A stretch of 64,000 bases of DNA. Origin: a virus. The stretch is taken from IMG/VR virus record IMGVR_UViG_3300017527_000515, positions 32,001 to 96,000 of that record. One strand, 5' to 3'. The translations under genes and the position numbers were made by a program. This document shows, piece by piece, positions 1-64,000 of the stretch; the first letter of the stretch is position 1, and each line of letters begins with the position of its first letter. A model generated the notes under the pieces. That model saw nothing but the letters and a program-made list of their open reading frames with translations. It ran no database searches and was not told where the DNA came from.

Positions 1-349
1 AACATTTATTAATATAAAGAGACAGGTCATCATTAGAACTAGTTACATCCACTACTCTGGTCCATGAGCTATTAGGTTTAGTTATTTTAAATCCTTCTAT
101 ATAAATAGACTGTTCACTGACAGGTGCGTAAGTTATATACACTGAAGAAGACCCACCTGACGGACTACGTATCTCAACGGTACCTGTATAATTATCAGTA
201 CTCGCCCTAAGACTCACAGCCTTATCTATAGTTACACTTTCAACATATTGAGCAGGATCTACAATTATTAAATCACCATCTGAAGCTGCGTCAATAGCTA
301 ACTGTATACCTAAATAGTCTTTGCCTACACCTACATATATAAAAGCCAT
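1..349 (-). CDS. Parallel beta-helix (pectin-lyase-like) protein, probable tailspike/adhesin; 3' end outside the window
   Basis: Not in the ORF track. ATG at 349 with GGAG upstream, inside the end of the previous gene. It reads MAFIYVGVGKDYLGIQLAIDAASDGDLIIVDPAQYVESVTIDKAVSLRAS..., the typical IQxAIDxAxxGDxIxVxPxxYxExV beta-helix cap, and stays open to base 1. Confidence 0.75.
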   Translation of the reverse strand, partial: MAFIYVGVGKDYLGIQLAIDAASDGDLIIVDPAQYVESVTIDKAVSLRASTDNYTGTVEIRSPSGGSSSVYITYAPVSEQSIYIEGFKITKPNSSWTRVVDVTSSNDDLSLYINKC

Positions 350-352
350 AAT

Positions 353-7489: not shown

Positions 7490-7500
7490 ACTTAACTCCC

Positions 7501-37320: not shown

Positions 37321-38712
37321 TTAATCCGAAGGAGATTCAACTCCTCCCTGCTGTGCAGTAGCTGTTATCTTAACTTCTCTAGCAGCCGTACCTGCTGTAT
37401 ATGTAGTTTCAGCTACACCGTCTGAATCAGTATTAGCTGGGTTAGGCCCAGTAATAGCACCATTAGCATCGTCATCTGTAAAATATACTAATTTACCGCC
37501 AATCGGTAAATTGTGTTGATCTTTAACAATGGCTGTAATCTGCGAAGTGTTAACTCCATTGGCCGGTAAAATAGCTGGGTTAGCCCTGAGACTTATACTT
37601 GTAATAAACGGCTCTAAGGTTGATAGCTGATAGCTGTATGTGCCATCAGAAAATGTATAAGTAGCCCCATAGTAAGTGGCTTTCCTCTGCAGCCTATACA
37701 CATTAACACCTTCCATTGTTAAATCATAAATAGGTATAACCGTAGCTTGATCATCTTCCACATTGTCCATAGTCATAGAACCAAAGCTATCGTTGAAATT
37801 GTCTGGATTCAAAAATATAATATTGGTAGTTCGAACATAACATATAGAATTAAACTTAGGCCAGTTGAACGCGTCATTAGCTGGGGTATCTTGCCAATCC
37901 CTATCAAATATATAATTAGGCACATCGAAGAAAGTACAAGCATCTACATTTTTATACTCACCGCCAGCAAATCTAGTCTGGTAAGATCCTGTGTAAGCAT
38001 TAAATTGATATAAAGCACCGTCAGCGCTGGACACGCCGTCCCAGTTGTTGAAAACCCAAATGTTATTGTAGAAGGATGCTGGGTCTCCGTACCTATCTTG
38101 GTAATCATTACCGACACCAGAGGCGGTTGGGCCCTCATAAGCATAAGTAGTTGAACCATTTAGGTTAACATTATAAATAGTCTCCTGACCAGTAGCCTGT
38201 ACTGTAACAGAGTTCACAGATATGTCTTCTCTTTGGCCATTAGCATTAGGGCCAAGTGATATAGTCATACCACTTTGCAGTTTGGCTATTAGATCAAAGT
38301 CAGCCTGTTTAGTTTTGGGCTGATACATACTCAACACTGAGGAACTTGTCGAGGCGTTGCTTTTGAATCTTAGATGGTAGTGTTCTATGGCCATAGCTTC
38401 GGACTGATATTTATGAGAAGCATCTGGTACCATAGTGAAATTATCTCGTTGTTTTAGAACATAATTCTCTAGATTCCAGCGCTTTATACGTATAGTATCG
38501 CTGCCTGGGTTTTCCAATGTCCAGAAATTTCTGCCATCATACTCCATACTGACTATTTGAGTAGATATAGTAGTGTCTAGTGGGTATGAATAGGCCTGGG
38601 TACCATCATCAGTCTTTACAATCATGGCGTCTTGGGACTGGTCCATCATATAAAAGTAACCATCTATCATGGTTACATTTTGCCTAAGTAATGTTATATT
38701 TTCATAAGCCAT
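37321..38712 (-). CDS. Virion protein with a C-terminal Big-1 (invasin/intimin-type Ig) domain (463 aa)
   Basis: ANPAILPANG..SQITAIVKDQHNLP..VYFT..TDSDGVAETTYTAG..ITAT. Confidence 0.8.
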   Translation of the reverse strand: MAYENITLLRQNVTMIDGYFYMMDQSQDAMIVKTDDGTQAYSYPLDTTISTQIVSMEYDGRNFWTLENPGSDTIRIKRWNLENYVLKQRDNFTMVPDASHKYQSEAMAIEHYHLRFKSNASTSSSVLSMYQPKTKQADFDLIAKLQSGMTISLGPNANGQREDISVNSVTVQATGQETIYNVNLNGSTTYAYEGPTASGVGNDYQDRYGDPASFYNNIWVFNNWDGVSSADGALYQFNAYTGSYQTRFAGGEYKNVDACTFFDVPNYIFDRDWQDTPANDAFNWPKFNSICYVRTTNIIFLNPDNFNDSFGSMTMDNVEDDQATVIPIYDLTMEGVNVYRLQRKATYYGATYTFSDGTYSYQLSTLEPFITSISLRANPAILPANGVNTSQITAIVKDQHNLPIGGKLVYFTDDDANGAITGPNPANTDSDGVAETTYTAGTAAREVKITATAQQGGVESPSD

Positions 38713-47534: not shown

Positions 47535-50500
47535 TTAACCTACACCAGGTCTTGTAGCGAAGTTCTGTGCATCTTGTGCGTATCGTCTGGCTTCACCGAC
47601 TTCATACTGCATACGCCCCTCGAACCTAGTTACTCTGCTGGTTATTTCACTTATGTTATTTCTATTAGTATTAATATCATGTGTGACCTGATTCATAGCT
47701 TCTGACACTGCGCTTTGTATTTCAGGCTTCACATTATTAGCTGTCAAGGCTTTGGATTCTAGGTTAACCATTCTTTCCTCTAATTCTCCCTTGACTGTTA
47801 TTAGTTTGTCCTGTACATCAACTACTGCGTTAGATATTGAATCTAGGCTGTCTGCTCCTACAGATCCATTAGCTGATGGATTAACATCTACAGTGGCATT
47901 AGCCAGCGCCTGGCTTATAGCATTGGATATTTCCGAAGCTACTCCAGCAGCATCTACAGGTACGGTAACGTCGGCAGTATCAACCCTGACCACAGCGCTG
48001 TCGGTGTCTACCTTAACTACCGCGCCCTCCAAGTCTACTGGTACCTTAGCATCAGTTGTATCTACCCTAACTTTAGCGTCAGCTTCTACTTTAACTTCTG
48101 ATGATTCTATAGCACTCTTAACCTGATCTGCTATCTGACTAGCTACTTCACTACCATCTATTTTAACAGTGGTTGAGGTTAAGGATGCTCTAGTCAAATT
48201 ATCATCTACCATACCGCCCGCCTGGAATCCCTTAGGTAGTATGGTTTCTCCCTTCTGAGCAAACACCGTACCAGTTTGGGCAACAACTCCACCATTATGC
48301 ATCACTGGTCTAGATTTATTACTACTAAACGTGTCTTTATAAAACTGTTTAGGTACTTCGTAGAAACCCTGTTTCATTGCTTCGAACATTCTTCCCAGCT
48401 TCTCTCTTGCTGAGAAACCTCGGGTTTCTTTCTCGAAATCTTGTTTACGACCCTGGCCAGCTATTTTTATCTGGTCTCTTACTGCTCTTAGCTCAGCAGG
48501 TTCCAGTTTACCCTTACCGAATCTACCATATAACATAGCCAATGAGTCTACAGTTGCTGCGTCTTTGGCCATACCGAATTGGTTAGCTATATCCTCAGCA
48601 TTAATGGCTGCTTTTTCCAACATGGCCTTAGCAGCAGCAGCGCCTACCTCATCCCCTGCTTCTTTAAGTCTGACATACTCTTTAAATAGATGAGGACTGG
48701 CAAGAAATGCCAATCTAGGATCTTTTATTCCATATTTATTCTCATCAACCTTTTTACGAACGTCATGGAAATTTTTAGTAAGTTTTATATCCTTCATCAG
48801 AGGCTTGATCTTGTTCATGTCTACATTGCCGGACATAACCATAGCTTCTAGACTTTTTAACTCATCTTGTCTATTAAAGTTTGGATCATTCTCTGATAAA
48901 TATCTTAACTTATTGTAATATTCATAGGCCAGCTGGGTATCTCTACCTATACCTGCCGTACCGTATAGATTTTCTAAAACATTACGATCCGGTGCTTGAG
49001 GATCTACCTCGCCCTGCATAGCCTTTCTGCTTATACCAGCCACTAGTTGAGCTCTGGCTACCTTAGCACGTGTATCCTGTAGTTTCTTACCTGGGTTCGC
49101 ACCTGGGGTGGCCTCGTATCCAGGACCCACCGTTGGAAGCGGTAGTTGCCCTCTGGCCATAGCTTCTTTTCTTTCTTTATATGCTAATTCATTAAGGTCA
49201 TATTTAGATTGAACACCGTGGGATAGACCTTCCGCACTAACTATACCGGTTTTAGAATCGAACGTATAGTTGAATAGCCCTTTACCCTTAGGTGCTGGTA
49301 ATATACCAGGCTCTCTCAGTGCGTCATAAACTTCTTTATCCCTCTTAAGAGCTTGTCTATTCTCGCGTTGTATTGTTTTAGCATGCTCTGCTTGAATCTG
49401 GTTATAAACATCCACATTACCAGAAGCCTTTGCCGCAGCAAGTTGTTCTTCGTAGGTATGCTTACCTACTAATGCTTTCTCAGCGAACGCCTGCTCATTC
49501 AAAGCTGCCAATCTCTTACTTTCTTCCTGAACAGTTAACTCAGCAAATCTAGCAGTAGGTTGTCCAGCACCAAATGATGGATCTGGGTCTACTATACCTG
49601 TATTAACTCTATATGCTTTATTGTTTGCAAAAGTACCTTGATCTCGGCGTGCTGTAGTCATAGCGTCATCTGGCAAACCACCTACTATGTTACCGTTCTC
49701 ATCCAGCTCAACTATCTCTCCATTTATCTCGGTGAATCTTCTAGCCAGACCGCCCTCTGCATACTTCTTACGCTTCATCCTACCGCCCATGCCTTTTTTA
49801 TCTATAGCATCAAGTATATTAGTCTTGGTGTCTTTACTGGTAAGATAACTAAATGTACGGGCATCACTTCCCATTTCAGCAAGTTCTTCTTCTGTAGCTT
49901 CTACCTCACGGCCGAAGTAAAATTCTTTAGCAGTCTTAAGCCATTCGCCTATCTGGCCTATAATACCGCCTTCGGCGTAATGCTTACGCTTCATCCTACC
50001 GCCCATGCCTCTAAACTCTGCTGGTTCGGATAAGGCTATACCATACTTATGGTATATGTCATTTTTCATATCATCACTGAGTAATTTTCCCGCGCCTATA
50101 TTACGGAGAAACTCCCCAATTTTTCTTTTTTTCTCATGGCGTTGCTTAAGAGCGTCTAGTTGTTGTTTTAGTTTTTCCTTTTCTTCTTTAGATCGTACCG
50201 GCTCAGTTTTAGGTACGAAAGGTTTTATCTTACCACCATCACCATACTTCTTAATCATGCCGCCCATACCCTTACTATCTATGTCACCTGCGGCATCAAG
50301 TATATTTTTCTTGGTTTCTTTGCTGGTTAGATAGCTAGTGGCTCGACCGCTTTCGGCGCCTCTGGCTAAATCTTCCTCACTTACTTCTACATCCCTACCA
50401 AAAAAGAAATCCTTTGTTGTCTTTAGCCAATCTTTGATGCGGCCCGCCATTCCGCCTTCGGCGAAATGCTTACGCTTCATCATGCCGCCGCCGCCTTTAT

Positions 50501-53500
50501 TGTTGTGCGGGTCTACTGCATCAAGTATGTTCTTTTTAGTATCCTTACTTGTTAAGTAACTAAATGACCTGGCGTCTTCTGCCATTTCAGCTAGCTCTTC
50601 TTCTGTAGCTTCAACTTCGCGGCCAAAATAAAACTCTTTGGCGGTCTTTAGCCAATCACCAATCTGGCCCATAATACCGCCCTCAGCAAAACCAGTGAAC
50701 AATTTAGTATATTCCTCTACTAACGGGCTCTTAATTTCTCCAGCTTTGACTAATTTCACAAACTCTGCAAAGTTTTCTCGGCCAAATTTAGAAGCATCTC
50801 CTGTGAATCTCTCAGCATATTTAGACACTGGAGGTTGGGCTATAAAACTATCCATGAAATCCTTCATCTTCTGAAGTCTTTCTTTAGTTAGGGTCTTAGC
50901 TATCTCTGGATCATCTATATGTTTACCTATTAATGATGGATCTTTTAAGAATTTCTTTACAGCTGATTCTGTTACATGGCCTCCTATCTCATGCTCAAAT
51001 CCGCCCGCTACTACTTTTCTTCTTGATGCTAAATCAGAAGCTTTAGCCAAGCCTCTAGAAGATGAAACTATATCTTGTCCCTCTTTAAAAGTAGTAGTTA
51101 GCTTTTGTCCTTCCTTAGCCTTAGTACTTACCTTTAGATTAGGATTAGTCATAAGACCGGCTACAGGATGATTAGATCTAGCTAGTTTAAATTCCTCGTT
51201 AAGTATGTCTATATTTTTAGCTAAATCGGCCTTATTGGTTGCTTTACCTACAGACCCTGATAAATCCACTGCTGTATCTAGAGATTTAAGAGCCTTTCCT
51301 GATTTACCTAGATGCTTTATAGACCCAGGTACAAATGGCAGCACTGCTAGACCGGCCAATCCTCTACTCAAGGGACCCAGTTTCTCATCAGTGATAACAT
51401 CTATACCAGTTATAGCTTCTTGAGCGCTTTTAACATCACCCACTATAGGGGAAGCGTCTAATACAGTAGAAGTAGCAAGCTTACCAAAAGACTTTAATTC
51501 GTCTTTAGTAGGAGGTCTGTAAATCTCATCATATTCTGCCTTGGTCATAAATGGTTTTCCTGTAATGGTGCTAACAGGAGCTCCATACGCAGATCTCATT
51601 TTGCGGCCTGAAGGACCTACATATAAAGGATTAGTTTCATCATACTCCCTAGAAGAAACCAACTTGTCAGGAAATCCTCCGTTAGCCATCCCCGGAGGTA
51701 ATTGACCTTCCTTATTCATATATTCAAGAGCAGACATTCCTAACTTAGAAGCAGATGCTGCTTTGATTACATATTCACCTGGGCTTAACATGGCAGGGAC
51801 CTTGTCTTCTTTAGGACCACCTTCACCGAACACTTTACCGCCCTGAGCTCTGCCCGTTCTTTTCTCATGCTCAGTTCTTGAGTCTATAGATTTCACATTG
51901 AATTTGGGGTCTGTGTACGGGACTTTTTGTATTCTACGAAGTCTTTCCGCCTCGTGTTGATCATAACCCTTATCCACAAACGCCTGTCTATTAATATCTG
52001 GAGCTTTAGATTTAATAACATCCAGCAATGCTTTGATGCCACCATCAATATTATTTAGAACTGATGTTTGATCAGTCAATACCCCAGTTTGTGCATCAAT
52101 ACTCTGTTTTATTTCCCCCTGACCAGCAGCAGTTTTTTCAGTCTGTACGTTTATAGACTGATCCACCTTGTTAAATCCAGTCTTGTTTTCCTCTATTAGT
52201 CTTAACCTGGTTTCCTCATGTGCATTAGCTCTTTCTGCCGCGGCCTCTTCTAATTGATTTTTATATTCCTGTAGCTGTAATAATTTCTTATTCAGCTCTA
52301 TTAGCTCAGTTACTCCTTGAGGTGTTCTCCCCTCTTCTATATCTTTTTTATTTAGACCTATTATATTCTCTCTTGCTGTCTGTACTGCCTTAATCTTGCT
52401 GTCTATAAGAGAAATAATCTTTTGGGTTTCCGCCTGTCTCTGTCTGGCCGCAGCAATATGATCTGGCATCTGTGGACCAACAAAAGATTGCTCGGCTGGT
52501 GTATAACTTCTTAAATATTTTAAGGCCTCTGACTCGTAAGCAAAACCACCGCCTTGTAGCCCTGGTAGTTTACCATACTTATTTATGTATTCTAAATTCT
52601 TACGACCTAATTTAGCTGCAGATGCTTGGTTTATTACGAATTCTCCAGAGCTAAGCATGGCCATTATGTTATCATCTTTTGGTCCACCTGGTCCGAATAT
52701 AGCTCCGCCAGCGGCCTTTTTAATAGCCGAATCAACCACCTTCACTTCTAAAGGATCTCCTAACTTGCTTATCATCTGTTCCATATAACCGGCTACAGAT
52801 GTAAGACCTTCTTTTGATCCTCTGGTACTTTCTGCTATACTAGATAGATGGTCTATCATTAGCTCTTGATTAGATGCTAGACCCATCTTCTGGAATTCTT
52901 TTCCGTACTGTTCTTTTAAGGAATTCTTTAAGCCTTCGAATTTACTGGTTAACTCATCAATTTGCTCTACAGTTATACCCCTACGTTCTTTCTTACCCTC
53001 AGCATTTATTATCTCATCGGGGGCCGCCTTTAGAAACGCACCGGCCTGTTCTTGTATAGCTTTAGCAGTTGCTTTGAGTTCTGGAGACACATTATTGTTT
53101 CTAGTTATACGTTCTAGATCAGTCATAAGTGTTAGGACTGGATCAGTTTGTCTCTTAAATCTCTCATCCTGTTTTTGCTGCTCTTTAGCGCGAGCTTCGC
53201 CTTCGTATTTAGAATCTAGAGACAGATAACGCTGCAGCAACTCAGACGTTTGGCCTTGCTGCTGCATGGCTCGGAGGATCTCTGCTTCCTCAACGTTTCT
53301 TCTGGTGTCAAATTCCTTTAGGTTAATTCCACCTCTGGCTGCCTCTAATCTAGTGGCTGGGTCTACAAGCTGTAATGCGTCTGCTCCACTTCCGCCAAGA
53401 AATTTATCTGTTTTAGCTCTGAACTCTTTAATACTAGCTAATTCATCTATAGCGTCCTGTACTGATACTTCGGTAAGTGCGTCATTAAGTTTGAACATAG

Positions 53501-56500
53501 CCTCACCTAATAACACTGTTCCGTTATAGGCTGCGACCACAGCGGGGTTCATAGCATTAGCTAGACTATCAGCATATTTTTTAGTAGACTCTATAGTCTT
53601 ATCTAATTCTTTCGCAGCATTGGCATTCTCACCAGCTGCTGATTTGGCGTATTCAGCTCTTCTCTTCTCTGCTTCGGCTAACTTTTTCTCAGCCTCCATC
53701 AACTGTTGATGAATTCTCATCTTACCTTCATCTACAGATCTTTGTTGTTTAGATATTAGCTCGTCTCTTTCAGATTTTATACCAGCAATTTCCGAGTCCA
53801 TACCCTCTAAGGCAGACAGTTGGTTATAAACACCATCTTCCTGGTATTTTTGTCTTAGCTGCTCTAGTCTAACTATTTCCTGTTCGGTCCTTGTTATGAT
53901 GTCCTGAGTGCTCTTAAAAGCAGTCATAAAACCTCTAAGGTCTTCATCAGCAGAGGCGAAAATTCTCTGCTGTGTGGACATCCCACTTCGTTCTAGAGGT
54001 AGTTGTGCGTCTCCTGCGAAACCACGAGTGTCTCTATTTAGAAAGGCACCTAAGCTATACTTTCTGGCTACCTCTAATTGAACAGCCTGATTGGCCAAGT
54101 CTCTAACAAAATCTTGTACCTGTTTGCGTATACCCTCAAACAGTTCCAATCTATGCATAGTATCTGCATTGCCCTCCATTTCTCTAGTGAGCGCAGCTAT
54201 TTCACTGTTCACGCCGCCAGTAGTCTGGGCCAATGCATCTAGAGCTTGCTGGGCATTATAAAACACATCCAATGCTTGTTTCTGTGCTTCAGAGTCCAAA
54301 GGCTTTTTAAGGTCTTCTTGGGCTCTTTTAGATTGATCAAGTAATTCCGTTATTATCAATTCAGCTACTTGTGGCCATTCACTGGCTATCTTATCCAGTA
54401 GTTCTCCTCTCTGCTCAGATAGTCTTTCTATGTCTGCTTTTCTAACTCCAGGACCAGTTAGTTCAGCGAAAGTCCCGGCCAATGTAGAAGCTAGGGCAGC
54501 CGCTAAAATTTTCTTTAGGCCGCCAGCACCGCCTTTAGAAGCCTCGTCTCTAAGAACCGCAGCCCTTTTCTCTATCTCAGCCTCCGGTAAGTCCTGTAAA
54601 CCGGTTAGTCTGGCCTTAAATGCTTCTCTTATGCCTTCTCTGGTAGTACCAGTTATCTCTTTTACTCGGTTCTCAAAATCACCCTTGAACTCCTTACCTG
54701 CTGAGCCTAAATCTTTTAAGGTACCGATAGATACATCACCAGATTCTCCCACTTCTTTGAGTGTTTTACCTAGCTCTTTACCGAATTCCTTAGCTGATTC
54801 TGGTAGCTCTTCTCCTGTTATCTTAGATGCTGCCTGCATAGCGGCGTATAGAACTAGAGAAGCTCCACCTATACGTTTAACGTTGGTTTCACTTATACCA
54901 AATGCTCTAGCTAGTGCTATTGTTCCAGTCTCAAGATTGGCTAGGCTAGCTACTATAGTATTGAAATCCAAAGATTTTTGTTCGGCAGCTATTGCTTTTT
55001 CTAAAGCTGCTACCTCAGACTGTCCAGTGGCTATTCTACCCTCGTCTCCTGCCTTTTTGGCTTCCAATAAAGCAGCTTTTTGGCCAACTAATTGCTCGTT
55101 CATCACGGCCAACGCTGCTGATGAATTACTCTTACTGAATGATTGGAATGCAGCAACGGCTGCTGAGACCTTCAATAAATTCTTAGAGTTAAAGAAAGTT
55201 TTTTCAGATAATTTCTTCTCTGCTTCTTGTATAGCAACCAGCTGTTTGAGCTCATCACTCTCAGCAAAGCCAGGGATTGATTTTAGTTTGGGTATTGGAA
55301 TTGGCCCGCCTACTCCGGGTAAAGCAGTAAACCCCCTCAATCCTAACTTTGTTCTAGGACCAGCGTCAGTTTTAAATCTCTCGGTAAGTTCGTTAGACTG
55401 TAATCCTCTGAAAGATCTTTGTAGATATTCCTCTCTGCTCAAACCTGCTCCAGGTAATAACCTAGAAGGACTTAGACCTACAGCAGCCTGTCCTCTACCA
55501 AAGGTGGTGAATTTGTTCATGGTGTCTACTAAAACATTTATCCTTTCTTCCAGAACTGCACGTTCTCTAGGACTGGCACCTTCTCTAGCGCCTGCTGCTT
55601 TATGTATTTCATGGGCTATCAACAGAGATATACGTCTTGCTTCTGCTCCACCCTGCTCATCTTCTGGTCTACTATCAAATTCTGCCACTCTTTCCTGTAG
55701 ACCTATTATTTTATCAGTAAGTACCTGATTGGTCTGACCCAATGAAACTAACTCTTCCAGGCTGGTAGCTATAGGATCTAAGGCAGTAACATTACTCTTA
55801 GTTAAGTTGTTTATATCTTTAGATAATGTAGCCCCTACCACATCACCAAGTACAGTACTTTTTTCTATAAATCCTTTTATTTCCTCTGGGGTAGCATCAG
55901 GGCCTATAACAGTCCCTATACCTTGTTGTGTAGCTGTAATAGTTTCTATTGCCACCTTAGCTCTAGCTAATTCTTCTCTACGTTGTATAAGAGCTTGTCG
56001 TCTTACATCAGCAGACCTGAAGTTTTGAGCAGCTCCCTGGTATTGAGGTTGATTTAATAGAGCTAGTTGTTTTACAGTAAGATCCTGTACACTACGAACA
56101 CCAGTATCTATATTATCCAAACCCTCAGGTAATCCAGCCAACAAACCAGAGGTGACTTTCACAGATTCCTGACGAGCCTCTTCTATAGCTATATTTTCAG
56201 CAAGAACTCTAGTACCTTGCTCTATAGTCTTAGACAGATCAGCAAACACAGCTGCGTATTGTACAACCACTTGGTTATTCTTAAGTACAGCTTGTTGTGC
56301 TAATAGCTCCTGATATACCTCCTCAGAAGCATCGGAAGTTTTTTCTAATGATCCTGCTTTATCAAATCTTCGTACAGATTTATTATATTTTTCCATGGGC
56401 TCTAAGAAATATTTTCTAGTATCTGATGCCCATTGCTTCTGTAAATTAGTAACTTCGCCAAACTCTCCGGTTTGAAAATTAAACCCTCTCTGACCTTGTA

Positions 56501-59500
56501 GTGCTGTGGTTGTGGATATATCACTATAGAATCTAGCACCTAGATCAAAATCTTTCTTGAATGCTTTCTCGTCTAAACCTACTATACCGGCAGCGGCTCC
56601 TGTTACAAAGGTACTTAAGTTCTCTAATCTGTTTTCTAATTCTGACTGTACTCTACCAGCAGGGAATATGGCTTCTACCATATCTGCTACTTCGTCAATA
56701 GATTTGGTTTCTAACTCGCCGACACCTTCTTTGGCTTTATAATTATAATAGGTAACAAAAGCTTCTAGAACCCCGTCTACATTCTTCTTTACCTCTACTA
56801 CACCCTGCTGACCAGCTATACCTGCTCTGGCTGCGGGCTGAGTTAAGAATGTTACTATGTCGCCGGTAACTAATTTAGTTCCTTTCTTGGCCTCTTTTTG
56901 TATTATACCAGATCCTTCCAATAGCGCCTTAGTAATATCCTTAGCGGCGCCTATAACAGCTCTTCTTGTAGGAAATACCTGTTGTAATATAGTAGCCCCT
57001 TGCAAGTCTCTACCTTGTATCTCTGGAAGATTTAGAAACTCAGGGAAGTTTATAGTTGATCTACCACCTGCTGCAGTAGGATCAAACAGTGTAGATGTGC
57101 CCTTGGGAGCATTTGGAAATTTAAGTGCTCTCTCTAACTCTCTTTGGGCATTTGCCGCATTTATAACTGGATCTACTTCCACAGCAAACTGGAAGCCCCT
57201 AAGTAGTTCCGGGTCTCCTAGTAATCTAGCTATAGTATCTCTATCTACAGCTGAAGCTCCTGGAAATTTGAATATACCAGCTAGAGTTTTATTAAAATCC
57301 TTAGCTGTACCATCATATATTTTTTTAAGTTTTCCTAAAGCATCTTGTAGAGTAGATATATCTTCATCAAACGCTGTAGACAGTGGATTCTGTGATCTGG
57401 CCAACAGAAGATCATTTAACCTGCCGGTTAGCATCTCCATTTGTTTAGCTGGAGAAACCTTAACTATATCTTTTAATAAAGGACCGAATCCTGGTACTTC
57501 CCCTAAAGCAGTGCCTAATATATTCTTTATCGATTCCCCAAAATCTACCTTAGTTAGATCCTGAGTGAATCTCTTCAATACATCTATATCAGTCTTGGCC
57601 AGTTCCAAAGCGCTGGCTCTTTGTAGGTTAGCTATATATTCTTTATAGTCGCCAGATAGTTTAAGTATAGCGTTACCTTGTTTATCATAACTCAACACTA
57701 GCTCATTATTTACCATGGCTAGTTCGTTAGCCCACTTGGTAGCATCTTTTTGTATATCACCTAATGCTATTAGAGGATGAGTGTAATTATCTGATGCTTT
57801 TCTAACCTCTTTTAACTTAGGATCTGCCTCTACCGCGTTAACTTCTTTTACTTTCTTTTGTAATCTATCATATTGTCTAGATAGGGTAGTTAAATTCTTA
57901 ATTTGATCTTCTTGTACTCTTCTGGAATTATATACAGACTGTGCATAATCCTGAGCAGTCATTCCTGTTTCTTGTATTCTACTTGCGAGTTCCTTGAAAG
58001 CCGGAATTAATGCTCCTACTGTTATAGCCATAGGAGTTATAGCCTTAAGCAATCCTGGATCAGTATCACCTATAAATTTAGCAAACTGAGCACCAGCTTC
58101 TCCGAAGTACTTACCGAATAATTCAAATGCTCTGCCTGAATTTTTAGCTACCTCCTCCATCACATTTATTACAGCTATAGTAAGATCGTCTTTCCATCCA
58201 GGTATCTTAGTAGCAAGTAGTTGTCCTACATCAGTGAATAAATCAGTGCGCTCGGCCCATTTCTTAACTTCGTCACCTAGCCCTTCTATTGTTTTACCCA
58301 TCTCCTCGGCAGAAGTTCCTCCGGCAGCTGCCCATGTGTTAAACGCCATACCAGCTTCTTTGATTACGTATGTTAATTTTCCAAAACCAGAATGTAGATC
58401 ATCTAAACCAGCAGCCTTTAGAGCATCCGGGACGCCTTTAGCAAAAGACTTTATACCTTCTAACTGAGGTCCTCCTTTGCCTCCGAAAATCTCAAAGGCA
58501 GATATGTCGAACTCTTTAGATACAGATCTAACAAAAGCGTCTATTACTCCTTTACCCTTACCAAATACTTCCACTAACTTATCAAATATATCCACTCCCT
58601 TAGCAGCATAACCAAAGAATAATGTAAGCGCTGCACCGGCAGCTTTAACCGGGGTAGGTATAGCGGACATGAATTCGAATACGGTCTTAAGAGCTTTAAG
58701 TCCACCCTTGAACACTGGGAATATAAACTTACCAAGCTCCATCTTCAGCTCAGTAGCAGCTGCTCTGGTTTGCTCTAACTGTTTAGCGTACGTTTTCATA
58801 ATCTCAACGTTACGTCTTTCAGCCGAGCCCTTAGAGTTAGTACTGTCCTCTATGGCGTCCAGTACCTCATCCCAATTATCCATAGCAACCAACAGTGCGT
58901 TATACTGTCGGGTGCCACCTAGAGATTGTGCTACATTAAGTTTTTGGGCATTAGTAAGCATAGCCCACTGTTTGGACAGATCAGATAAAATATCAAAACC
59001 ACGTCTATTCTCGCCGGTTGCTGTTATAGTAGGAATACCTATTTCTCCAAGAGCCTTAGGACCCTTTTCCGAGAATAAACGACGGGCAATGAATCTCATC
59101 GCCGTACCGACTTCCTTACCAGACTGTCTGGTTACAGAACCGATACCAGCCACAATACCATTTAACTCATTGAATGTGAAACCAGCATTCTTGGCTGCTG
59201 CAGCAGACTTCTTGATAGCGTTGGCCATATCAGCAGCGGTAATAGCGTGTCTGGCCTCAGTTTCACTCCAAGCGTCTAGTGCCATATCCGCTGATCCCAT
59301 CTCAGTTCCGAATGATTTCATGGCAGCAGTTAGTGCCTCTGTAGCTTCTGAGGCTGACAGTGTAGAAACGTTAGCTGCTAGAGTAGAAACTCTTGTTCTT
59401 TCTATAACTTCTGATTGTTTTAAACCTTGTTGTGCAAAGATCTTCATACCACGAAGAACTTCATTTATACTAACTCCGTATTCTTTTGCGAACATTACAG

Positions 59501-62500
59501 CAGACTGAGTTAGAGCATCAAAGTCAGCTTCTAGTGGGTTCATAACCATACGAAGCTGTGCTATACTAACTTCTATGTCAGCCAATTCACCTACTGAATC
59601 CTTAAGTTGTTGTACCCCACCATATACTAAGGTAGCTGCAGCTCCCCACATAATAACACGTCTGGCAGCAGATCTAAATGTTCCGCCTGCCATGTGCATC
59701 TTATCTATAAGGTCTGTAGTTCTATGGGTGTAATTCTCAACTTTACCAGCTGTATCATCAGTGGTCTCGCCGAACTTTTTAAAGTCGTGTCTGAAATTTC
59801 TTAGAACATTGCCAGCAGAGTCTGTCACCTTCTCAAAATAACTAAAGGATTCTCCCACTCTGGGACCAGTTCCTGGTGTGTCTGACTCAGGACCAGGCCT
59901 TTCGGCAAATTGTTTAAATTTCTCTATATTTCTTCTATGTAATGCTTGCTGTTGGTTAGGAGGTAAGAAAGTAGGAACCTTAACAGCGCCAGTCTCATAC
60001 TCTCCGAAGGCTCCGCGCTGTAACCTACCTAGGTCTATCTTTCCGTATACCTGCTCTATTTGTTTTAGATATTGTAGTAGAGATCTAACCTGAAATTTCT
60101 TCTCTACGTCTGTCTGGAATTCGTCTGATAAATTAAACCTAGAATACTGAGATAATGCTTCTCTTAGTACCCTAGCCCTCTTAGCTACCTTTTCAAAATC
60201 CCATGCCTCTGTAGCATCTCTCCCCTTTCTCTCGAAAAGATCTACATCCATCAGCACTCTCTTGGCAGCTTCATCCACGTCAGCTAGTTCATCTACTAGC
60301 TTTCTAATCTCTTCGGCCGGGGCCCCTAAGCCTCCAGCTTCAAGTTTATCTATTAAGTTTTTATATATACCCCTGGTGCGCTCGTCGCCCTCACCAAAAG
60401 GTTGTTTGGTTTTTTTATACAGATCTTCCGGTGTCTGGAATACCCCAGCCTGTTTAGCTAGATCTGGTAGTAAGAATCTTCTGTCTTTGGTATATATGTC
60501 TGTAGTTTTACCTAGACTCTTAACTATAAACTCACGTGATTTCTCCACTCTCTTTCTGAAGTCAGAAAACTCTCTTGTAGCAGGGCCCTGAGCGTTTGCT
60601 ACATCGAATACCTCTTCTGCCTGTTTGGCCTGGAAAATAAGAAAATCACCCATAGATATACGCCAAAGCTGCCACGCCTTCATAGATTCTTGGAAGGTTA
60701 TGTAGTCTCCTTCTACTAACTCAGTCAGTAATTTAGAGAACTGTGGGCCTGTGGGTGGAGCTTCCCCTGCTCCGCCAGAGAGAGCAGATTTAATATCAGT
60801 GTGCATCTTCTCTATGTTTTCATTAAAATTTAGATCACTTAAACCAGACTGTATGGCTATAGACCCCTGATGTAGCTCTGAGATAGCAGCTAGCTGATCT
60901 TTAAGAGGATCAGGAAATTTCTTTACCTTATCTTTACCTAAAGTTCTTTCTTCTGGAGTACCGCCAGTAATCTTTTCTCCGAACGTAGCTCTACCGTATT
61001 CAGGATCTTCCTTCATAGCCTGGCCAATATCTTTAGCTCTATTCTCGGCCGCTTTAAAGTTAGCTCTGGTTTCTTTGTACACCCCTTCTTTGCCTTCCAT
61101 GAACTCAAAGGCTTTCCTAGAAAGTTGTACGTACTCCTCTATGAATTCATCTGATTGCTCAGTAACTCCATAGATCTTATCTAACTCTTGTTCTAATAGG
61201 TAAGATTTTAGATTTCTAGCTTTGGAGAATGCCGGAGATTTACCACTAACTCTCTTACGTAGTTTACTAACGAGGTCTTGGTGTTCCTCTGGTACATCTT
61301 CTATACTGGTAGATAAATCTAGTACATAGTTATTTACTAGTTCTCTAGCTGTCTTCAGTGTCTCTAGATCTGACTTCAGTCTTTCTGGGTCGAAGCCGAA
61401 TGTTACTGATTTAGCGGGTGTGGTTAGACCAGCATCTTCAGAAGGTATAAAGTCTATAGATGCTTGGACTCCTGGAGCAGCCTGTCCTGACTGCACAAGA
61501 GCGCCTAGATATACATTAAGCTGAGATCTATAGTCCTCTAGCTTCTGTCTAATATGTTCTGGTATTTCTTTATCTAATATATCTGCTAGGGCTATGGTAC
61601 CTTCTGGTCCTATGGCTCTAGATATACTTTCAAATTTAGCGAAGGTCTCACCGGTAGTTTTAATATCAGATATTTTTTCTACCTGACCTTGTGCGTTTTT
61701 ATAGGCTACATCAATGAAGCCAGTGATGGGACCTCTGACTCCCTCAACAAACTCTTTAGGCTTCAGGTATACAAATTTTTCTATCTCTACCTCTCCACCT
61801 CTACCAGCAGCCTCAGCCTCATCCTTAATTTTCTTCTGCATTTTTGCATGGAGAGCTGTACCAATATCGAATGCTGATTGTACATAATCACTCTTTAGCT
61901 CTTCTGCATCAAGTCCTAACAACTGTCCTGTGATGGCTTCTAGTTGAGACCCCTGACGGTTGCCCTTTATCAGTTCTCCTAAGTCTGCGCCGCCACCTTT
62001 AAACTTACTAGCAGTAAATACATTATTCAGATTTGTAAAAAATTGTTTTTTAAGTTGATTATATTCTTGTTCTAAATTAACATCAGCTCCCCTAGGACCT
62101 ACTTCTACTCCTGGGAAGTATTTCTTCTGTAATTTATCGAACTCAGGTTTACCTATGTTCTCAGAGTGTCTATCAAAATCACTTGATATTTTTTTATAAT
62201 CTTTTAGCTGTGATTGTAGGCTTCTTATCGAAGCTTCGCCATGCTGATCGTGTTGATCTCTAATCTCCGACAGTGCTGATTTTGTTTGTTGCTGTGGGGC
62301 AAAGTCAGGATTAAGCTGGTCGGTATAATCTCTTCTGGCGCCAGTACCACCGCCGCCGCCAAAGAACACTCCCACACCTTGGGCTACACTGTGTATATGT
62401 ACTGGAACTACTCCTCCAGTCATAGGGAATTGTCCGCCGACACCGCCTCCACCAAATATAGTACCAGAACCTCCCGGACCGTGTATGCCCTTAGCTTCTT

Positions 62501-64000
62501 CTCTCATAGCCTGGCCCTGGATAGCAGCGGCCTGCATGTCCTGGGAGAATTTATAGCTTCTAGCACTTTGTCCAGTGGCCTTAGGTCTGGAAAGATCACT
62601 GGCTTCTGGAAATAACGATAGAGTTGTTATACCTTCCTTGGCTCTAGTAGATAAGACATCTAATATCCTATCCATTTCGTAAACTATTTCAGCTTTGGCT
62701 GCCAGCTCCTGGGCATAACTCTCAGCTGCTACTTCTACTTCTTCTTTATTAAAATCTGGATCTTTAGAAAGTAGCTTTTCTCCATGCTTTCTAAAATCCT
62801 TCAATAGCTTCTCAGAAACATCTATCTTCTCTTCCCTAGTCAACGTGGGAACTCCCACAAGATCAGCCAGTTTTTCTATCTCTTTAATCTGATCTTCTGG
62901 AGCCTTTTTTAATATATCTCTAGTAAGACTAGGTAATTCTTCCTCTAGTAGAACTCTGCTTTTTAGAGCATCTAGACTTCTGTCGACTTTGGTTATATCA
63001 AATCCTTCAGCTTGAAGCTTCTTAAACTCATCGTCTATTAGTAATTGGTCTCTATGGATATTATCCAGAGTACTCTTGACTAATTGAGAATAAGCTCCAG
63101 CATCTAAACCTTCAGCAGCTTCAGCTATAGCGTCTTGTATGTTTCTAGCAGTAGCCTTGGCTTGTTTATATTTCTTTAATAATTCCTCTTGCTCTTTAGG
63201 TTTCTTTCTTAAGAATTGTACACCTTGAGGCACAGTAGGTTCCCCATACCTCTCCGTGAATCTCTTTTCTTGTCCCTTAAGATTAGATTCCTGACGTGTT
63301 ATATATAATGGTAGATTAGGAACTGTGATATGTTCACGTACATTGATACCACCTGCTGCTATTTCTTCTTGTATAAGATTTTTAGCATAAGATTTAGGAT
63401 CTCCTATCTGCGCACGCTTATCTGGGGATAGCTTTTCTATATTCCTTAGAATACCTTCCATGGCGCCTTCTCTTACCTGGTCTGCCATTTCGCGGAAGAA
63501 TGATTCTAAACCAGTAGCCTTGACTGCCATGTCAATCAGCTCGTCTCTATCAGCTCTGCTCAAATCGAAGGAGCTATACTCAGTACCTCTAGCTTCATAA
63601 AGTTGCTCTAGTTCTTTTCGTATAGTAGAGGTATCCATCTTACCAAGTCTTAGCTTGGTAGACTTATTAACTGCCGCTTCAAAGTCTGCTATCTCACCCT
63701 CTGGGAGTAAGGAAGCCCATAGTTCAGTTACCCCATCATACCCTTGTGCTATACGGCTTTGTATTTCACCGGCTATGGTAGACCCACCAGCATGCTTAAC
63801 ATCCATACCCTTCTGGATGGCAAACCTAAATACCTCATTAAATTTGGTATAAAAGTCTCTGGCTATCTCATCCTGGCTGCCGCCTAATATTCCTAGATTA
63901 GGATTACGGCCAGAGAAGCCCTCACTGGGTTTAAATTCAGCCCCTCCAGTACCTAACAGACCAGAACCGAATCCAACACTAGATTCTGCTAATCTATTAA
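47535..64000 (-). CDS. Giant multidomain tail tape measure protein (TP901-type core) with PD-(D/E)xK nuclease, pre-toxin TG and zincin-like domains; 5' end outside the window
   Basis: TP901/PhageMin_Tail-like core at about 58600-59700 (AKEYGVSINEV..FAQQG...ATEALTAAM...DLANA-like DMANAIKKS...TRQSGKEVGTAMRFI...LGGTRQYN). The frame has no stop from 63807 to 64000, so the track's ATG at 63806 is probably internal. Confidence 0.9.
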   Translation of the reverse strand, partial: NRLAESSVGFGSGLLGTGGAEFKPSEGFSGRNPNLGILGGSQDEIARDFYTKFNEVFRFAIQKGMDVKHAGGSTIAGEIQSRIAQGYDGVTELWASLLPEGEIADFEAAVNKSTKLRLGKMDTSTIRKELEQLYEARGTEYSSFDLSRADRDELIDMAVKATGLESFFREMADQVREGAMEGILRNIEKLSPDKRAQIGDPKSYAKNLIQEEIAAGGINVREHITVPNLPLYITRQESNLKGQEKRFTERYGEPTVPQGVQFLRKKPKEQEELLKKYKQAKATARNIQDAIAEAAEGLDAGAYSQLVKSTLDNIHRDQLLIDDEFKKLQAEGFDITKVDRSLDALKSRVLLEEELPSLTRDILKKAPEDQIKEIEKLADLVGVPTLTREEKIDVSEKLLKDFRKHGEKLLSKDPDFNKEEVEVAAESYAQELAAKAEIVYEMDRILDVLSTRAKEGITTLSLFPEASDLSRPKATGQSARSYKFSQDMQAAAIQGQAMREEAKGIHGPGGSGTIFGGGGVGGQFPMTGGVVPVHIHSVAQGVGVFFGGGGGTGARRDYTDQLNPDFAPQQQTKSALSEIRDQHDQHGEASIRSLQSQLKDYKKISSDFDRHSENIGKPEFDKLQKKYFPGVEVGPRGADVNLEQEYNQLKKQFFTNLNNVFTASKFKGGGADLGELIKGNRQGSQLEAITGQLLGLDAEELKSDYVQSAFDIGTALHAKMQKKIKDEAEAAGRGGEVEIEKFVYLKPKEFVEGVRGPITGFIDVAYKNAQGQVEKISDIKTTGETFAKFESISRAIGPEGTIALADILDKEIPEHIRQKLEDYRSQLNVYLGALVQSGQAAPGVQASIDFIPSEDAGLTTPAKSVTFGFDPERLKSDLETLKTARELVNNYVLDLSTSIEDVPEEHQDLVSKLRKRVSGKSPAFSKARNLKSYLLEQELDKIYGVTEQSDEFIEEYVQLSRKAFEFMEGKEGVYKETRANFKAAENRAKDIGQAMKEDPEYGRATFGEKITGGTPEERTLGKDKVKKFPDPLKDQLAAISELHQGSIAIQSGLSDLNFNENIEKMHTDIKSALSGGAGEAPPTGPQFSKLLTELVEGDYITFQESMKAWQLWRISMGDFLIFQAKQAEEVFDVANAQGPATREFSDFRKRVEKSREFIVKSLGKTTDIYTKDRRFLLPDLAKQAGVFQTPEDLYKKTKQPFGEGDERTRGIYKNLIDKLEAGGLGAPAEEIRKLVDELADVDEAAKRVLMDVDLFERKGRDATEAWDFEKVAKRARVLREALSQYSRFNLSDEFQTDVEKKFQVRSLLQYLKQIEQVYGKIDLGRLQRGAFGEYETGAVKVPTFLPPNQQQALHRRNIEKFKQFAERPGPESDTPGTGPRVGESFSYFEKVTDSAGNVLRNFRHDFKKFGETTDDTAGKVENYTHRTTDLIDKMHMAGGTFRSAARRVIMWGAAATLVYGGVQQLKDSVGELADIEVSIAQLRMVMNPLEADFDALTQSAVMFAKEYGVSINEVLRGMKIFAQQGLKQSEVIERTRVSTLAANVSTLSASEATEALTAAMKSFGTEMGSADMALDAWSETEARHAITAADMANAIKKSAAAAKNAGFTFNELNGIVAGIGSVTRQSGKEVGTAMRFIARRLFSEKGPKALGEIGIPTITATGENRRGFDILSDLSKQWAMLTNAQKLNVAQSLGGTRQYNALLVAMDNWDEVLDAIEDSTNSKGSAERRNVEIMKTYAKQLEQTRAAATELKMELGKFIFPVFKGGLKALKTVFEFMSAIPTPVKAAGAALTLFFGYAAKGVDIFDKLVEVFGKGKGVIDAFVRSVSKEFDISAFEIFGGKGGPQLEGIKSFAKGVPDALKAAGLDDLHSGFGKLTYVIKEAGMAFNTWAAAGGTSAEEMGKTIEGLGDEVKKWAERTDLFTDVGQLLATKIPGWKDDLTIAVINVMEEVAKNSGRAFELFGKYFGEAGAQFAKFIGDTDPGLLKAITPMAITVGALIPAFKELASRIQETGMTAQDYAQSVYNSRRVQEDQIKNLTTLSRQYDRLQKKVKEVNAVEADPKLKEVRKASDNYTHPLIALGDIQKDATKWANELAMVNNELVLSYDKQGNAILKLSGDYKEYIANLQRASALELAKTDIDVLKRFTQDLTKVDFGESIKNILGTALGEVPGFGPLLKDIVKVSPAKQMEMLTGRLNDLLLARSQNPLSTAFDEDISTLQDALGKLKKIYDGTAKDFNKTLAGIFKFPGASAVDRDTIARLLGDPELLRGFQFAVEVDPVINAANAQRELERALKFPNAPKGTSTLFDPTAAGGRSTINFPEFLNLPEIQGRDLQGATILQQVFPTRRAVIGAAKDITKALLEGSGIIQKEAKKGTKLVTGDIVTFLTQPAARAGIAGQQGVVEVKKNVDGVLEAFVTYYNYKAKEGVGELETKSIDEVADMVEAIFPAGRVQSELENRLENLSTFVTGAAAGIVGLDEKAFKKDFDLGARFYSDISTTTALQGQRGFNFQTGEFGEVTNLQKQWASDTRKYFLEPMEKYNKSVRRFDKAGSLEKTSDASEEVYQELLAQQAVLKNNQVVVQYAAVFADLSKTIEQGTRVLAENIAIEEARQESVKVTSGLLAGLPEGLDNIDTGVRSVQDLTVKQLALLNQPQYQGAAQNFRSADVRRQALIQRREELARAKVAIETITATQQGIGTVIGPDATPEEIKGFIEKSTVLGDVVGATLSKDINNLTKSNVTALDPIATSLEELVSLGQTNQVLTDKIIGLQERVAEFDSRPEDEQGGAEARRISLLIAHEIHKAAGAREGASPRERAVLEERINVLVDTMNKFTTFGRGQAAVGLSPSRLLPGAGLSREEYLQRSFRGLQSNELTERFKTDAGPRTKLGLRGFTALPGVGGPIPIPKLKSIPGFAESDELKQLVAIQEAEKKLSEKTFFNSKNLLKVSAAVAAFQSFSKSNSSAALAVMNEQLVGQKAALLEAKKAGDEGRIATGQSEVAALEKAIAAEQKSLDFNTIVASLANLETGTIALARAFGISETNVKRIGGASLVLYAAMQAASKITGEELPESAKEFGKELGKTLKEVGESGDVSIGTLKDLGSAGKEFKGDFENRVKEITGTTREGIREAFKARLTGLQDLPEAEIEKRAAVLRDEASKGGAGGLKKILAAALASTLAGTFAELTGPGVRKADIERLSEQRGELLDKIASEWPQVAELIITELLDQSKRAQEDLKKPLDSEAQKQALDVFYNAQQALDALAQTTGGVNSEIAALTREMEGNADTMHRLELFEGIRKQVQDFVRDLANQAVQLEVARKYSLGAFLNRDTRGFAGDAQLPLERSGMSTQQRIFASADEDLRGFMTAFKSTQDIITRTEQEIVRLEQLRQKYQEDGVYNQLSALEGMDSEIAGIKSERDELISKQQRSVDEGKMRIHQQLMEAEKKLAEAEKRRAEYAKSAAGENANAAKELDKTIESTKKYADSLANAMNPAVVAAYNGTVLLGEAMFKLNDALTEVSVQDAIDELASIKEFRAKTDKFLGGSGADALQLVDPATRLEAARGGINLKEFDTRRNVEEAEILRAMQQQGQTSELLQRYLSLDSKYEGEARAKEQQKQDERFKRQTDPVLTLMTDLERITRNNNVSPELKATAKAIQEQAGAFLKAAPDEIINAEGKKERRGITVEQIDELTSKFEGLKNSLKEQYGKEFQKMGLASNQELMIDHLSSIAESTRGSKEGLTSVAGYMEQMISKLGDPLEVKVVDSAIKKAAGGAIFGPGGPKDDNIMAMLSSGEFVINQASAAKLGRKNLEYINKYGKLPGLQGGGFAYESEALKYLRSYTPAEQSFVGPQMPDHIAAARQRQAETQKIISLIDSKIKAVQTARENIIGLNKKDIEEGRTPQGVTELIELNKKLLQLQEYKNQLEEAAAERANAHEETRLRLIEENKTGFNKVDQSINVQTEKTAAGQGEIKQSIDAQTGVLTDQTSVLNNIDGGIKALLDVIKSKAPDINRQAFVDKGYDQHEAERLRRIQKVPYTDPKFNVKSIDSRTEHEKRTGRAQGGKVFGEGGPKEDKVPAMLSPGEYVIKAASASKLGMSALEYMNKEGQLPPGMANGGFPDKLVSSREYDETNPLYVGPSGRKMRSAYGAPVSTITGKPFMTKAEYDEIYRPPTKDELKSFGKLATSTVLDASPIVGDVKSAQEAITGIDVITDEKLGPLSRGLAGLAVLPFVPGSIKHLGKSGKALKSLDTAVDLSGSVGKATNKADLAKNIDILNEEFKLARSNHPVAGLMTNPNLKVSTKAKEGQKLTTTFKEGQDIVSSSRGLAKASDLASRRKVVAGGFEHEIGGHVTESAVKKFLKDPSLIGKHIDDPEIAKTLTKERLQKMKDFMDSFIAQPPVSKYAERFTGDASKFGRENFAEFVKLVKAGEIKSPLVEEYTKLFTGFAEGGIMGQIGDWLKTAKEFYFGREVEATEEELAEMAEDARSFSYLTSKDTKKNILDAVDPHNNKGGGGMMKRKHFAEGGMAGRIKDWLKTTKDFFFGRDVEVSEEDLARGAESGRATSYLTSKETKKNILDAAGDIDSKGMGGMIKKYGDGGKIKPFVPKTEPVRSKEEKEKLKQQLDALKQRHEKKRKIGEFLRNIGAGKLLSDDMKNDIYHKYGIALSEPAEFRGMGGRMKRKHYAEGGIIGQIGEWLKTAKEFYFGREVEATEEELAEMGSDARTFSYLTSKDTKTNILDAIDKKGMGGRMKRKKYAEGGLARRFTEINGEIVELDENGNIVGGLPDDAMTTARRDQGTFANNKAYRVNTGIVDPDPSFGAGQPTARFAELTVQEESKRLAALNEQAFAEKALVGKHTYEEQLAAAKASGNVDVYNQIQAEHAKTIQRENRQALKRDKEVYDALREPGILPAPKGKGLFNYTFDSKTGIVSAEGLSHGVQSKYDLNELAYKERKEAMARGQLPLPTVGPGYEATPGANPGKKLQDTRAKVARAQLVAGISRKAMQGEVDPQAPDRNVLENLYGTAGIGRDTQLAYEYYNKLRYLSENDPNFNRQDELKSLEAMVMSGNVDMNKIKPLMKDIKLTKNFHDVRKKVDENKYGIKDPRLAFLASPHLFKEYVRLKEAGDEVGAAAAKAMLEKAAINAEDIANQFGMAKDAATVDSLAMLYGRFGKGKLEPAELRAVRDQIKIAGQGRKQDFEKETRGFSAREKLGRMFEAMKQGFYEVPKQFYKDTFSSNKSRPVMHNGGVVAQTGTVFAQKGETILPKGFQAGGMVDDNLTRASLTSTTVKIDGSEVASQIADQVKSAIESSEVKVEADAKVRVDTTDAKVPVDLEGAVVKVDTDSAVVRVDTADVTVPVDAAGVASEISNAISQALANATVDVNPSANGSVGADSLDSISNAVVDVQDKLITVKGELEERMVNLESKALTANNVKPEIQSAVSEAMNQVTHDINTNRNNISEITSRVTRFEGRMQYEVGEARRYAQDAQNFATRPGVG
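47940..48095 (-). repeat. About 8-aa VxVD repeats near the TMP C-terminus
   Basis: VKVEADAKVRVDTTDAKVPVDLEGAVVKVDTDSAVVRVDTADVTVPVDAAG. Confidence 0.85.
49750..50690 (-). repeat. Three about 72-aa in-frame repeats within the TMP, with an identical 28-nt segment
   Basis: AEGGxxGxIxxWLKTxKxFxFGRxVExxEExLA...SYLTSKxTKxNILDA occurs three times. cttacgcttcatcctaccgcccatgcct is present at 49767-49794 and 49983-50010. Confidence 0.95.

Follow-up and report, generated by a model that had tools for sequence, protein, structure and literature searches.

The DNA analysed here is a stretch of 64,000 nucleotides (the window), bases 32001-96000 of one 115,457-bp virus contig, IMG/VR record IMGVR_UViG_3300017527_000515, and it ends inside a giant gene. 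The product, 8,081 residues in one chain, is probably a virion protein that serves as the tail tape measure and also carries enzymes. N-terminal to a TP901-type tape measure core, the chain appears from its sequence to contain a single-chain, cellular-type (β then β') two-barrel RNA polymerase (RNAP) with intact catalytic motifs. In Oshimavirus, the fusion of a virion RNAP to a tape measure was reported in 2024, as gp96 of Thermus phage P23-45, and also for phages P74-26, G20c and TSP4 (Chaban et al., PMC10770324).

The open reading frame (ORF) listing gives one minus-strand frame at 47535..63998, open at the window end, that encodes 5,487 amino acids and is stop-free over 16.4 kb. At the level of the contig the frame is open for 8,085 codons, up to window-equivalent position 71795. 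The most upstream and best start is a TTG at window-equivalent 71780 with a Shine-Dalgarno (SD) sequence, AGGGAGGTG, 6 nt upstream, which gives 8,081 residues and a gene of 24.2 kb, or 21% of the contig. No in-frame ATG with an SD sequence was found inside the giant ORF, whereas neighboring genes have clear AGGAG/GGAGG sites. The single ORF of more than 16.4 kb in the original prediction is thus confirmed and, at 8,081 codons in the full contig, is longer still; the window holds residues 2595-8081 and the stop codon, about the last two thirds of the protein. The reading of the frame as an artefact or as fused genes was ruled out by the colinear giants found in 49 clusters and by the uniform lack of cysteine.

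The tape measure core was recognized by TIGR01760 (tape_meas_TP901; E 1.8e-43, 148.9 bits, cut-off 28.8) and by PF10145 (E 1.9e-24, 87.1 bits, cut-off 33.2), and tape measure PHROGs match down to E 1.4e-74. It lies internally, where it had been predicted at about 58600-59700 (Table 1). Among GenBank phages, the middle part of the protein matches only distant tape measure cores, at 22-29% identity. The body following the core is helix-favoring as judged by composition only, A, E, K, L, Q, R and M making up a fraction of 0.54. At 1.5 Å per residue, the expected tail would be about 400 nm long if residues 3700-6350 alone are the ruler, and about 1.2 µm long if the whole chain is.

Residues 1-2594, beyond the window, hold both signature sets of two-barrel RNAPs. 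The β-type motifs MEDQILVS (residues 1196-1203) and GRKFTSRYGSKGV (residues 1305-1317), at about window-equivalent 67821-68270, resemble YNFEDSILVS and GDKMAGRHGNKGV of RpoB, and IRYPFTG... and KLDFDGDEIAVH (residues 2356-2360) resemble the R-x-P and NADFDGDQMAVH elements of RpoC. Both the R-x-P element and the DxDGD metal-binding loop that define a β'-type barrel are present, as RYPFTG ... KLDFDGD; D2358 is invariant, K2354, L2355, D2356, G2359 and D2360 are at least 90% conserved in relatives, and a weak match to Pfam RNA_pol_Rpb1_2 is placed exactly on DFDGD. Hidden Markov models (HMMs) of the family find E. coli RpoB at 810-824 and 1063-1077 and RpoC at 459-478, in the right order. Searches with residues 1-2593 gave no sequence match in the PDB and no tblastn match in GenBank phages.

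An AlphaFold2 model of residues 2060-2480, built on a 29-sequence alignment, has a mean predicted local distance difference test (pLDDT) score of 80.3 and a predicted template modeling (pTM) score of 0.71, with model residues 40-330 mostly above 90. When this model was compared with the PDB by Foldseek, all 50 of the 50 best matches were largest subunits of bacterial, archaeal or eukaryotic RNAPs, with E values of 1e-3 to 6e-3, probabilities of 0.99-1.00 and 221-292 alignment columns; matches among viral models were mostly RNAP subunits of giant viruses and poxviruses. A helical hairpin directly before DFDGD occupies the position of inserts in cellular β' barrels. As modeled, the fold is more firmly supported for the second (β') barrel than for the first. 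It is very improbable that the polymerase-like part is a relic or has some other role, as a DNA-binding plug or a primase-like or RNA-templated polymerase, with no part in early-gene transcription. Two-barrel enzymes do include RNA-dependent polymerases, but the catalytic Asp triad, both β-type lysines and the R-x-P element are kept across relatives at 26-73% identity, a degree of conservation that speaks for an active enzyme.

An exhaustive HMMER search with residues 1180-2379 as the query matched 104 cluster representatives, 49 of which, from metagenomic clusters, are giants of 5,013-7,998 amino acids, most of them longer than 6,400. All 49 giants share the RNAP and the tape measure core, colinear and with the polymerase N-terminal, which makes the fusion a constant trait of a large lineage. 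PF10145 is found downstream of DFDGD in the family members P0004 and P0006, and a search among proteins of 4,539-5,000 amino acids found no homologue. Coverage along the chain, counted by BLAST of the 8,081-residue protein against the 49 giant representatives, is given in the lower part of Table 1. The closest relative, an IMG/VR contig with a 6,726-residue frame ended by the contig edge, is 54.6% identical and colinear over residues 768-6406. A comparison of relatives had been suggested for a conserved core with variable cassettes, and it finds these, the tape measure block in 45-49 of the 49 giants and residues 6800-7800 in none. A plain helical tape that is invariant among relatives would have spoken against the original prediction; the chain instead contains globular modules that are not part of the ruler and a variable cassette zone.

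Table 1. Features of the giant protein (window coordinates; positions above 64000 are window equivalents) and, in the last eight lines, coverage of segments of the protein among 49 giant relatives.
Feature	Residues	Window coordinates	Strand	Remarks
Variable N-terminal ~600 residues, then most of the RNAP module	1-2594	outside window	minus	
β'-type barrel (predicted)		window-equivalent 64572-65510	minus	DFDGD (residues 2356-2360) at 64701-64715
Window part of giant ORF		47535..64000	minus	continues past window to TTG at window-equivalent 71780
C-terminal end of conserved RNAP module	2595-3050	62631..63998	minus	conserved RFxIQKGMDVKHAG motif
Glycine-rich linker	~3105-3160	62301..62468	minus	within poorly conserved 3100-3300
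PD-(D/E)XK (RecB-like) nuclease	~3300-3430	61491..61883	minus	upstream of tape core
Tape measure block	3700-5300	55881..60683	minus	conserved in all giant relatives
TP901-type tape measure core	4053-4374	58659-59624	minus	TIGR01760/PF10145
Moderately hydrophobic segments in tape measure block		58584-58673 and 57984-58061	minus	
Semi-conserved body	5300-6350	52731..55880	minus	present in 19-39/49 relatives
First GGPKxD..MLSxGEFV motif	~6357-6410	52551..52712	minus	
Second motif, GGPKxD..MLSxGEYV	~6645-6703	51672..51848	minus	closest relative: one copy
PT-TG (pre-toxin TG) domain	6770-6832	51285..51473	minus	PF14449
Zincin-like (metallopeptidase-like) module	~6840-7030	50691..51263	minus	HEIGGH ... 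PVSKYAE ... ENFAEF
Three 70-residue repeats and spacer	7029-7100, 7104-7175, 7266-7335	49776..50696	minus	each repeat opening [FY]AEGG
Lineage-specific region	7336-7800	48381..49775	minus	unmatched in 49 giants; 28% identity to closest relative over part
Conserved C-terminal end	7823-8081	47538..48314	minus	~17-25/49 relatives; 46% identity in closest relative
Coverage: variable N-terminus	1-500			11-16/49
Coverage: polymerase module	600-3050			mostly 41-49/49 (35-41 over 1800-2100 and 2900-3000)
Coverage: linker zone	3100-3300			9-13/49
Coverage: nuclease	3300-3500			about 34/49
Coverage: tape measure block	3700-5300			45-49/49
Coverage: semi-conserved body	5300-6400			19-39/49
Coverage: cassette zone	6800-7800			0/49
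Coverage: C-terminal end	7800-8081			17-25/49

One of the marked features of the protein is its complete lack of cysteine. None is present among the 8,081 residues, whereas the other 72 ORFs contain 1.20% on average, from which about 97 would be expected (P about 6e-43). Cysteine is also absent from 38 of the 49 giant relatives, the maximum being four, and from all 5,002 residues of P23-45 gp96, compared with 0.19% in 13 other P23-45 structural proteins. This absence fits a chain that travels in an extended state through the tail tube and the oxidizing periplasm, and may reflect selection on the chain to stay extended and to cross an oxidizing compartment. Such complete cysteine avoidance over 5,000-8,000 residues is easily recognized from sequence and may be a mark of proteins that are threaded through a tail.

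The glycine-rich linker marks the boundary between the polymerase module and a nuclease module. The nuclease that had been predicted upstream of the tape core is borne out by invariant catalytic residues in 34 family sequences and by PD-(D/E)XK neighbors in the ESM Atlas, where the top clusters score 0.94-0.95. Motifs I-III and the Q-x-x-x-Y motif follow in order, and G3307, H3311, E3334, G3354, D3357, D3372-I-K3374 and Q3420...Y3424 are 97-100% conserved. Among curated models, the module has no Pfam match at E 0.1 or better and matches only PHROG 1706 (E 0.0019); its sequence has no match in the PDB. Since the whole protein is without cysteine, the nuclease has no Cas4-type four-Cys Fe-S cluster and is not Cas4 proper. 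The phage also encodes a separate 389-residue PD-(D/E)XK nuclease (genome 12493-13662; PF12705, E 1.5e-27) with the same motif order, which makes the tape-embedded nuclease a second, very divergent copy of the fold.

Residues from about 6350 to 7800 form a lineage-specific cassette zone. About 1,700 amino acids of motif-delimited cassettes had been predicted here. The motif [FY]A[ED]GG occurs four times in the last 1,731 amino acids, against 0.017 expected from shuffling, and nowhere else in the protein, but three of the four copies lie in duplicated 70-residue repeats, so that the copies are not independent and the excess comes mostly from duplication. The GGP..LSxGEFV-type motifs give short matches only to tape measures (PHROGs and the tape measure of Gordonia phage Lilbeanie), and among GenBank phages the C-terminal 2,488 residues match only one 56-residue motif in a Gordonia tape measure. 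Past residue 6406 the closest relative has one GGP..LSxGEFV motif rather than two, HEFAH...ENFAEF, and AEGG repeats that are differently arranged. The polymorphic-toxin-type module foreseen for the C-terminal region is confirmed as the PT-TG domain (47.2 bits, cut-off 23.5; E 2.1e-12), which among the collected sequences is found only here and in the 474-residue fragment P0110 (35% identity over PT-TG and the next module); it is absent from the closest relative.

The module that follows PT-TG is similar to zincins of the metallopeptidase (MPTase) type. At the same position, HEIGGH is found here (50976-50999), HEKYH in P0110 and HEFAH in the closest relative, and all three share PVSxYA and ENFAEF. 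The H, E, H and ENFAEF residues are invariant in a profile of the three sequences, and a HEXXH/HEXXXH motif with a Glu-bearing helix is present at motif level. No Pfam model, including the MPTase and LPD models, matches the module, and the profile has no sequence match in the PDB; leads from the ESM Atlas are 'Peptidase' (0.87), LPD23 (0.80) and M48 (0.75). With no sequence match to a curated model or a solved structure, the putative zincin (MPTase-like) assignment stays at motif level. The HEXXXH spacing occurs in two separate family members, as HEIGGH here and as HEVIGH in P0012 (residue ~6596), and four others have HEXXH.

The original prediction regarded the tape measure as a delivery chassis for several cytoplasmic effectors. 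The chassis itself is supported by the conserved core, the globular modules, the variable cassettes and the gp96 precedent (PMC10770324), but its chief load is the polymerase, the greater part of which is encoded outside the window. It seems rather unlikely that the tape measure is mainly a chassis for the nuclease, PT-TG and the cassettes, each released in the cell for host takeover or anti-defense. In favor of that reading, the catalytic residues of the nuclease are intact and the domain is optional (about 34 of the 49 giant relatives have it), the zone of residues 6400-7800 is not common to relatives and differs even from that of the 55%-identical one, PT-TG is the pre-toxin domain of polymorphic toxins, and MPTase hubs are known from polyvalent proteins that are injected (PMC5512222). 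Set against this, the polymerase is the largest and most conserved cargo, and PT-TG is internal, with no recognizable toxin domain after it; the MPTase-like module, the repeats and in all more than 1,000 residues beyond that module follow in place of a toxin tip. No immunity-like gene was seen, in the course of work that included no dedicated search for one, and the next gene is a 694-residue ORF without a family match at threshold. In tape measures the C-terminal part is at the tail-tip end and leaves first. The cassettes would thus be tip-proximal and would meet the envelope and not the cytoplasm, and the claim of several cytoplasmic effectors is not supported in the form given. By this analogy, an envelope or processing role for the C-terminal cassettes is at least as likely as a cytoplasmic one.

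It is quite possible, although short of likely, that the C-terminal cassettes are envelope tools or processing devices, in which the zincin cuts the giant protein or cell-wall peptides and the GGP..LSxGEFV motifs, the AEGG repeats and the C-terminal end serve tail-tip docking and membrane insertion. The restriction of GGP..LSxGEFV-type matches to tape measures, the conservation of the C-terminal 260 residues in about half of the relatives and the moderately hydrophobic segments near the tape core are in keeping with this. MPTases have been proposed as autoprocessing hubs, HEXXXH forms being known (PMC5512222), and a metallopeptidase domain is also present in P23-45 gp96 (PMC10770324). However, the zincin call depends on motifs and three sequences with neither a Pfam nor a PDB sequence match, and the motif pair is found in only 6 of 51 giants, which indicates that it is not a core function. 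The peptidase-like module also bears on the improbable scenario of a polyprotein that is cut before or during assembly: the polymerase-nuclease part would be packaged as an ejection protein of the head or neck, and the ruler would consist of the central part alone. The glycine-rich, poorly conserved linker between polymerase and nuclease, the presence of a peptidase-like module in the same chain and the difficulty of picturing a folded polymerase within a tail tube would all suit such a scenario. Most relatives, however, are without the peptidase-like module, and an antibody to the polymerase part of P23-45 gp96 detects the protein in virions, where the authors treat it as fused (PMC10770324).

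We favor the view that the protein is a tape measure that carries its enzymes through the tail, and we present a hypothetical model for its action. By analogy with gp96 and with tape measures, the C-terminal end would be anchored in the tail tip, being presumably the tail-tip anchoring end of the tape measure, and the central part would set the length of the tail. During infection the protein would be expelled tip-end first, with the central part lining the tube and then helping to form a channel across the envelope. Last to enter would be the N-terminal polymerase, which would lie next to the DNA end; once refolded, it would transcribe the first phage genes independently of the host enzyme, and would possibly help to pull in the DNA. 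The nuclease would travel with the polymerase and act on DNA in the cell, with host DNA, phage DNA ends or defense elements as possible targets. Close to the distal end, the HEXXXH zincin-like module would most likely process the giant protein or act on the envelope.

Several points weigh against this model. RpoB and RpoC are matched by the HMMs and by hhalign only over short stretches and with marginal significance, and the β-type barrel rests on motifs, being poorly predicted in a 1,200-residue model (pLDDT 32-67). No similarity of sequence or profile to gp96 was found with family HMMs or hhalign in either the polymerase or the tape part; only a 10-residue stretch at DFDGD was aligned by hhalign (E 0.017), and the analogy is therefore architectural. 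No flanking ORF matched a tail family of Pfam or PHROGs that would indicate the morphology of the virion. The presence in the virion of the protein, or of its N-terminal third, and its activity are predicted from the sequence. Finally, at least three copies of the polymerase module, each folded and about 2,500 residues long, would have to find room in or above the tail tube, which the model does not account for.

More tentatively, it may be that large phages of a widespread, so far undescribed lineage joined a cellular-type single-chain β-β' RNAP, distinct from the gp96 type, to a TP901-type tape measure in an event separate from that in the Thermus phages. Envelope attack, channel formation, nuclease action and first transcription would then all fall to one cysteine-free chain of 6,400-8,100 residues, with a tip-proximal swap zone in which PT-TG, zincin and repeat cassettes are exchanged among close relatives. 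If so, uncultured large phages (about 50 divergent giant clusters) would commonly rely on a tail-fused virion RNAP, which would no longer be the curiosity of one thermophilic genus, and more than 3,000 residues of enzyme could pass through the tail lumen before the DNA. The family would also offer a compact single-chain relative of cellular RNAP for mechanistic work, and the variable distal cassettes a natural set of modules for the action of tape measures at the envelope.

The giant gene sits in a one-strand block of large structural-looking genes, and all ORFs of note are on the same strand. Twenty neighboring ORFs compared with PHROGs and Pfam gave almost no matches and none to a tail family. 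Downstream of the tape measure, at window 353-28712, are very large structural-looking genes encoding proteins of 1,884, 2,911, 957, 1,176 and 2,378 amino acids, with almost no PHROG family match; the 2,911-residue protein has an F5/8 type C (discoidin) domain at residues 2198-2319. A 463-residue protein encoded at window 37321-38712 has a C-terminal bacterial Ig-like Big_1/invasin D3 domain (E 1.3e-13) and is probably a decoration or adhesin protein. The left arm of the genome encodes DnaB, a DnaG-type primase, a sliding clamp and glycosyltransferases, several of them of GT4 type (weak 'GT4-conflict' matches) and adjoining the DnaB, primase and clamp genes at genome 9429-12493 and neighboring positions. 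The GC content of 41% is that of a mesophile-like phage. Nearly every gene at window 353-47524 has a strong AGGAG/GGAGG ribosome-binding site, which argues against a Bacteroidota host, despite the partial relative P0005 being labeled as a 'Bacteroidetes bacterium' metagenome-assembled genome (MAG). A scan of GTDB genomes with the polymerase module matched only two MAG contigs, assigned to Gammaproteobacteria and Woesearchaeota; these are probably mis-binned phage contigs and hence give no clue to the host.

Additions to tape measures are familiar from T5 pb2 and from mycobacteriophage tape measures with cell-wall hydrolase motifs, where the ruler has catalytic or fusogenic penetration modules and the C-terminal part exits first. 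Those additions are small and act on the envelope. In the present protein the added parts, a polymerase and a nuclease among them, are larger than the ruler itself. In crAss-like phage phi14:2, with gp66, and in N4-like phages, a virion polymerase is likewise part of a very large injected multidomain protein. Unlike the present protein, however, these do not serve as tape measures; they belong to podoviruses and are believed to reside in the head or in association with the tail. The N4 enzyme differs in having a T7-like single-subunit fold, and N4-type enzymes are always fused to MPTase domains (PMC5512222); phi14:2 gp66 is a weak structural match to our β'-barrel model (BFVD rank 49, E 0.18). 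The polyvalent proteins are similar in being giant injected proteins that combine nucleic acid enzymes and zincin-like MPTase hubs with variable domain content; their MPTases are thought to be mainly self-processing hubs, and HEXXXH variants have been described (Iyer et al. 2017, PMC5512222). The difference is that the scaffold here is the tail ruler, and that paper mentions neither tape measures nor PT-TG.

Full-text literature searches found no description of a tape measure-fused virion RNAP other than that of P23-45, and the paper and its supplements do not mention Bacteroidetes, Flavobacterium or Cellulophaga (PMC10770324). The likeness to gp96 includes a two-barrel RNAP with DFDGD that precedes the tape measure in the same giant chain, a module of (here putative) metallopeptidase type farther toward the C-terminus, zero cysteine in the whole protein and a presumed role in injection and first transcription. 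There are also differences. With 8,081 residues against 5,002, the protein described here is 60% longer; its polymerase, of about 2,400 residues, follows a variable stretch of about 600, whereas that of gp96 occupies residues 1-1200 with DFDGD at 779. The β-type GxKxxxRxGxKG and FEDxI motifs are kept here, the fold matches are led by cellular RNAPs, and the PD-(D/E)XK nuclease and the PT-TG cassette are extra. A motif scan of the present genome for a second, non-virion RNAP, as expected for the gp96 type, found no other ORF with DxDGD; a divergent or T7-like enzyme would escape such a scan. P23-45 is thermophilic and the phage described here is mesophile-like. The protein is a large, previously undescribed variant of the tail-delivered polymerase known from P23-45.

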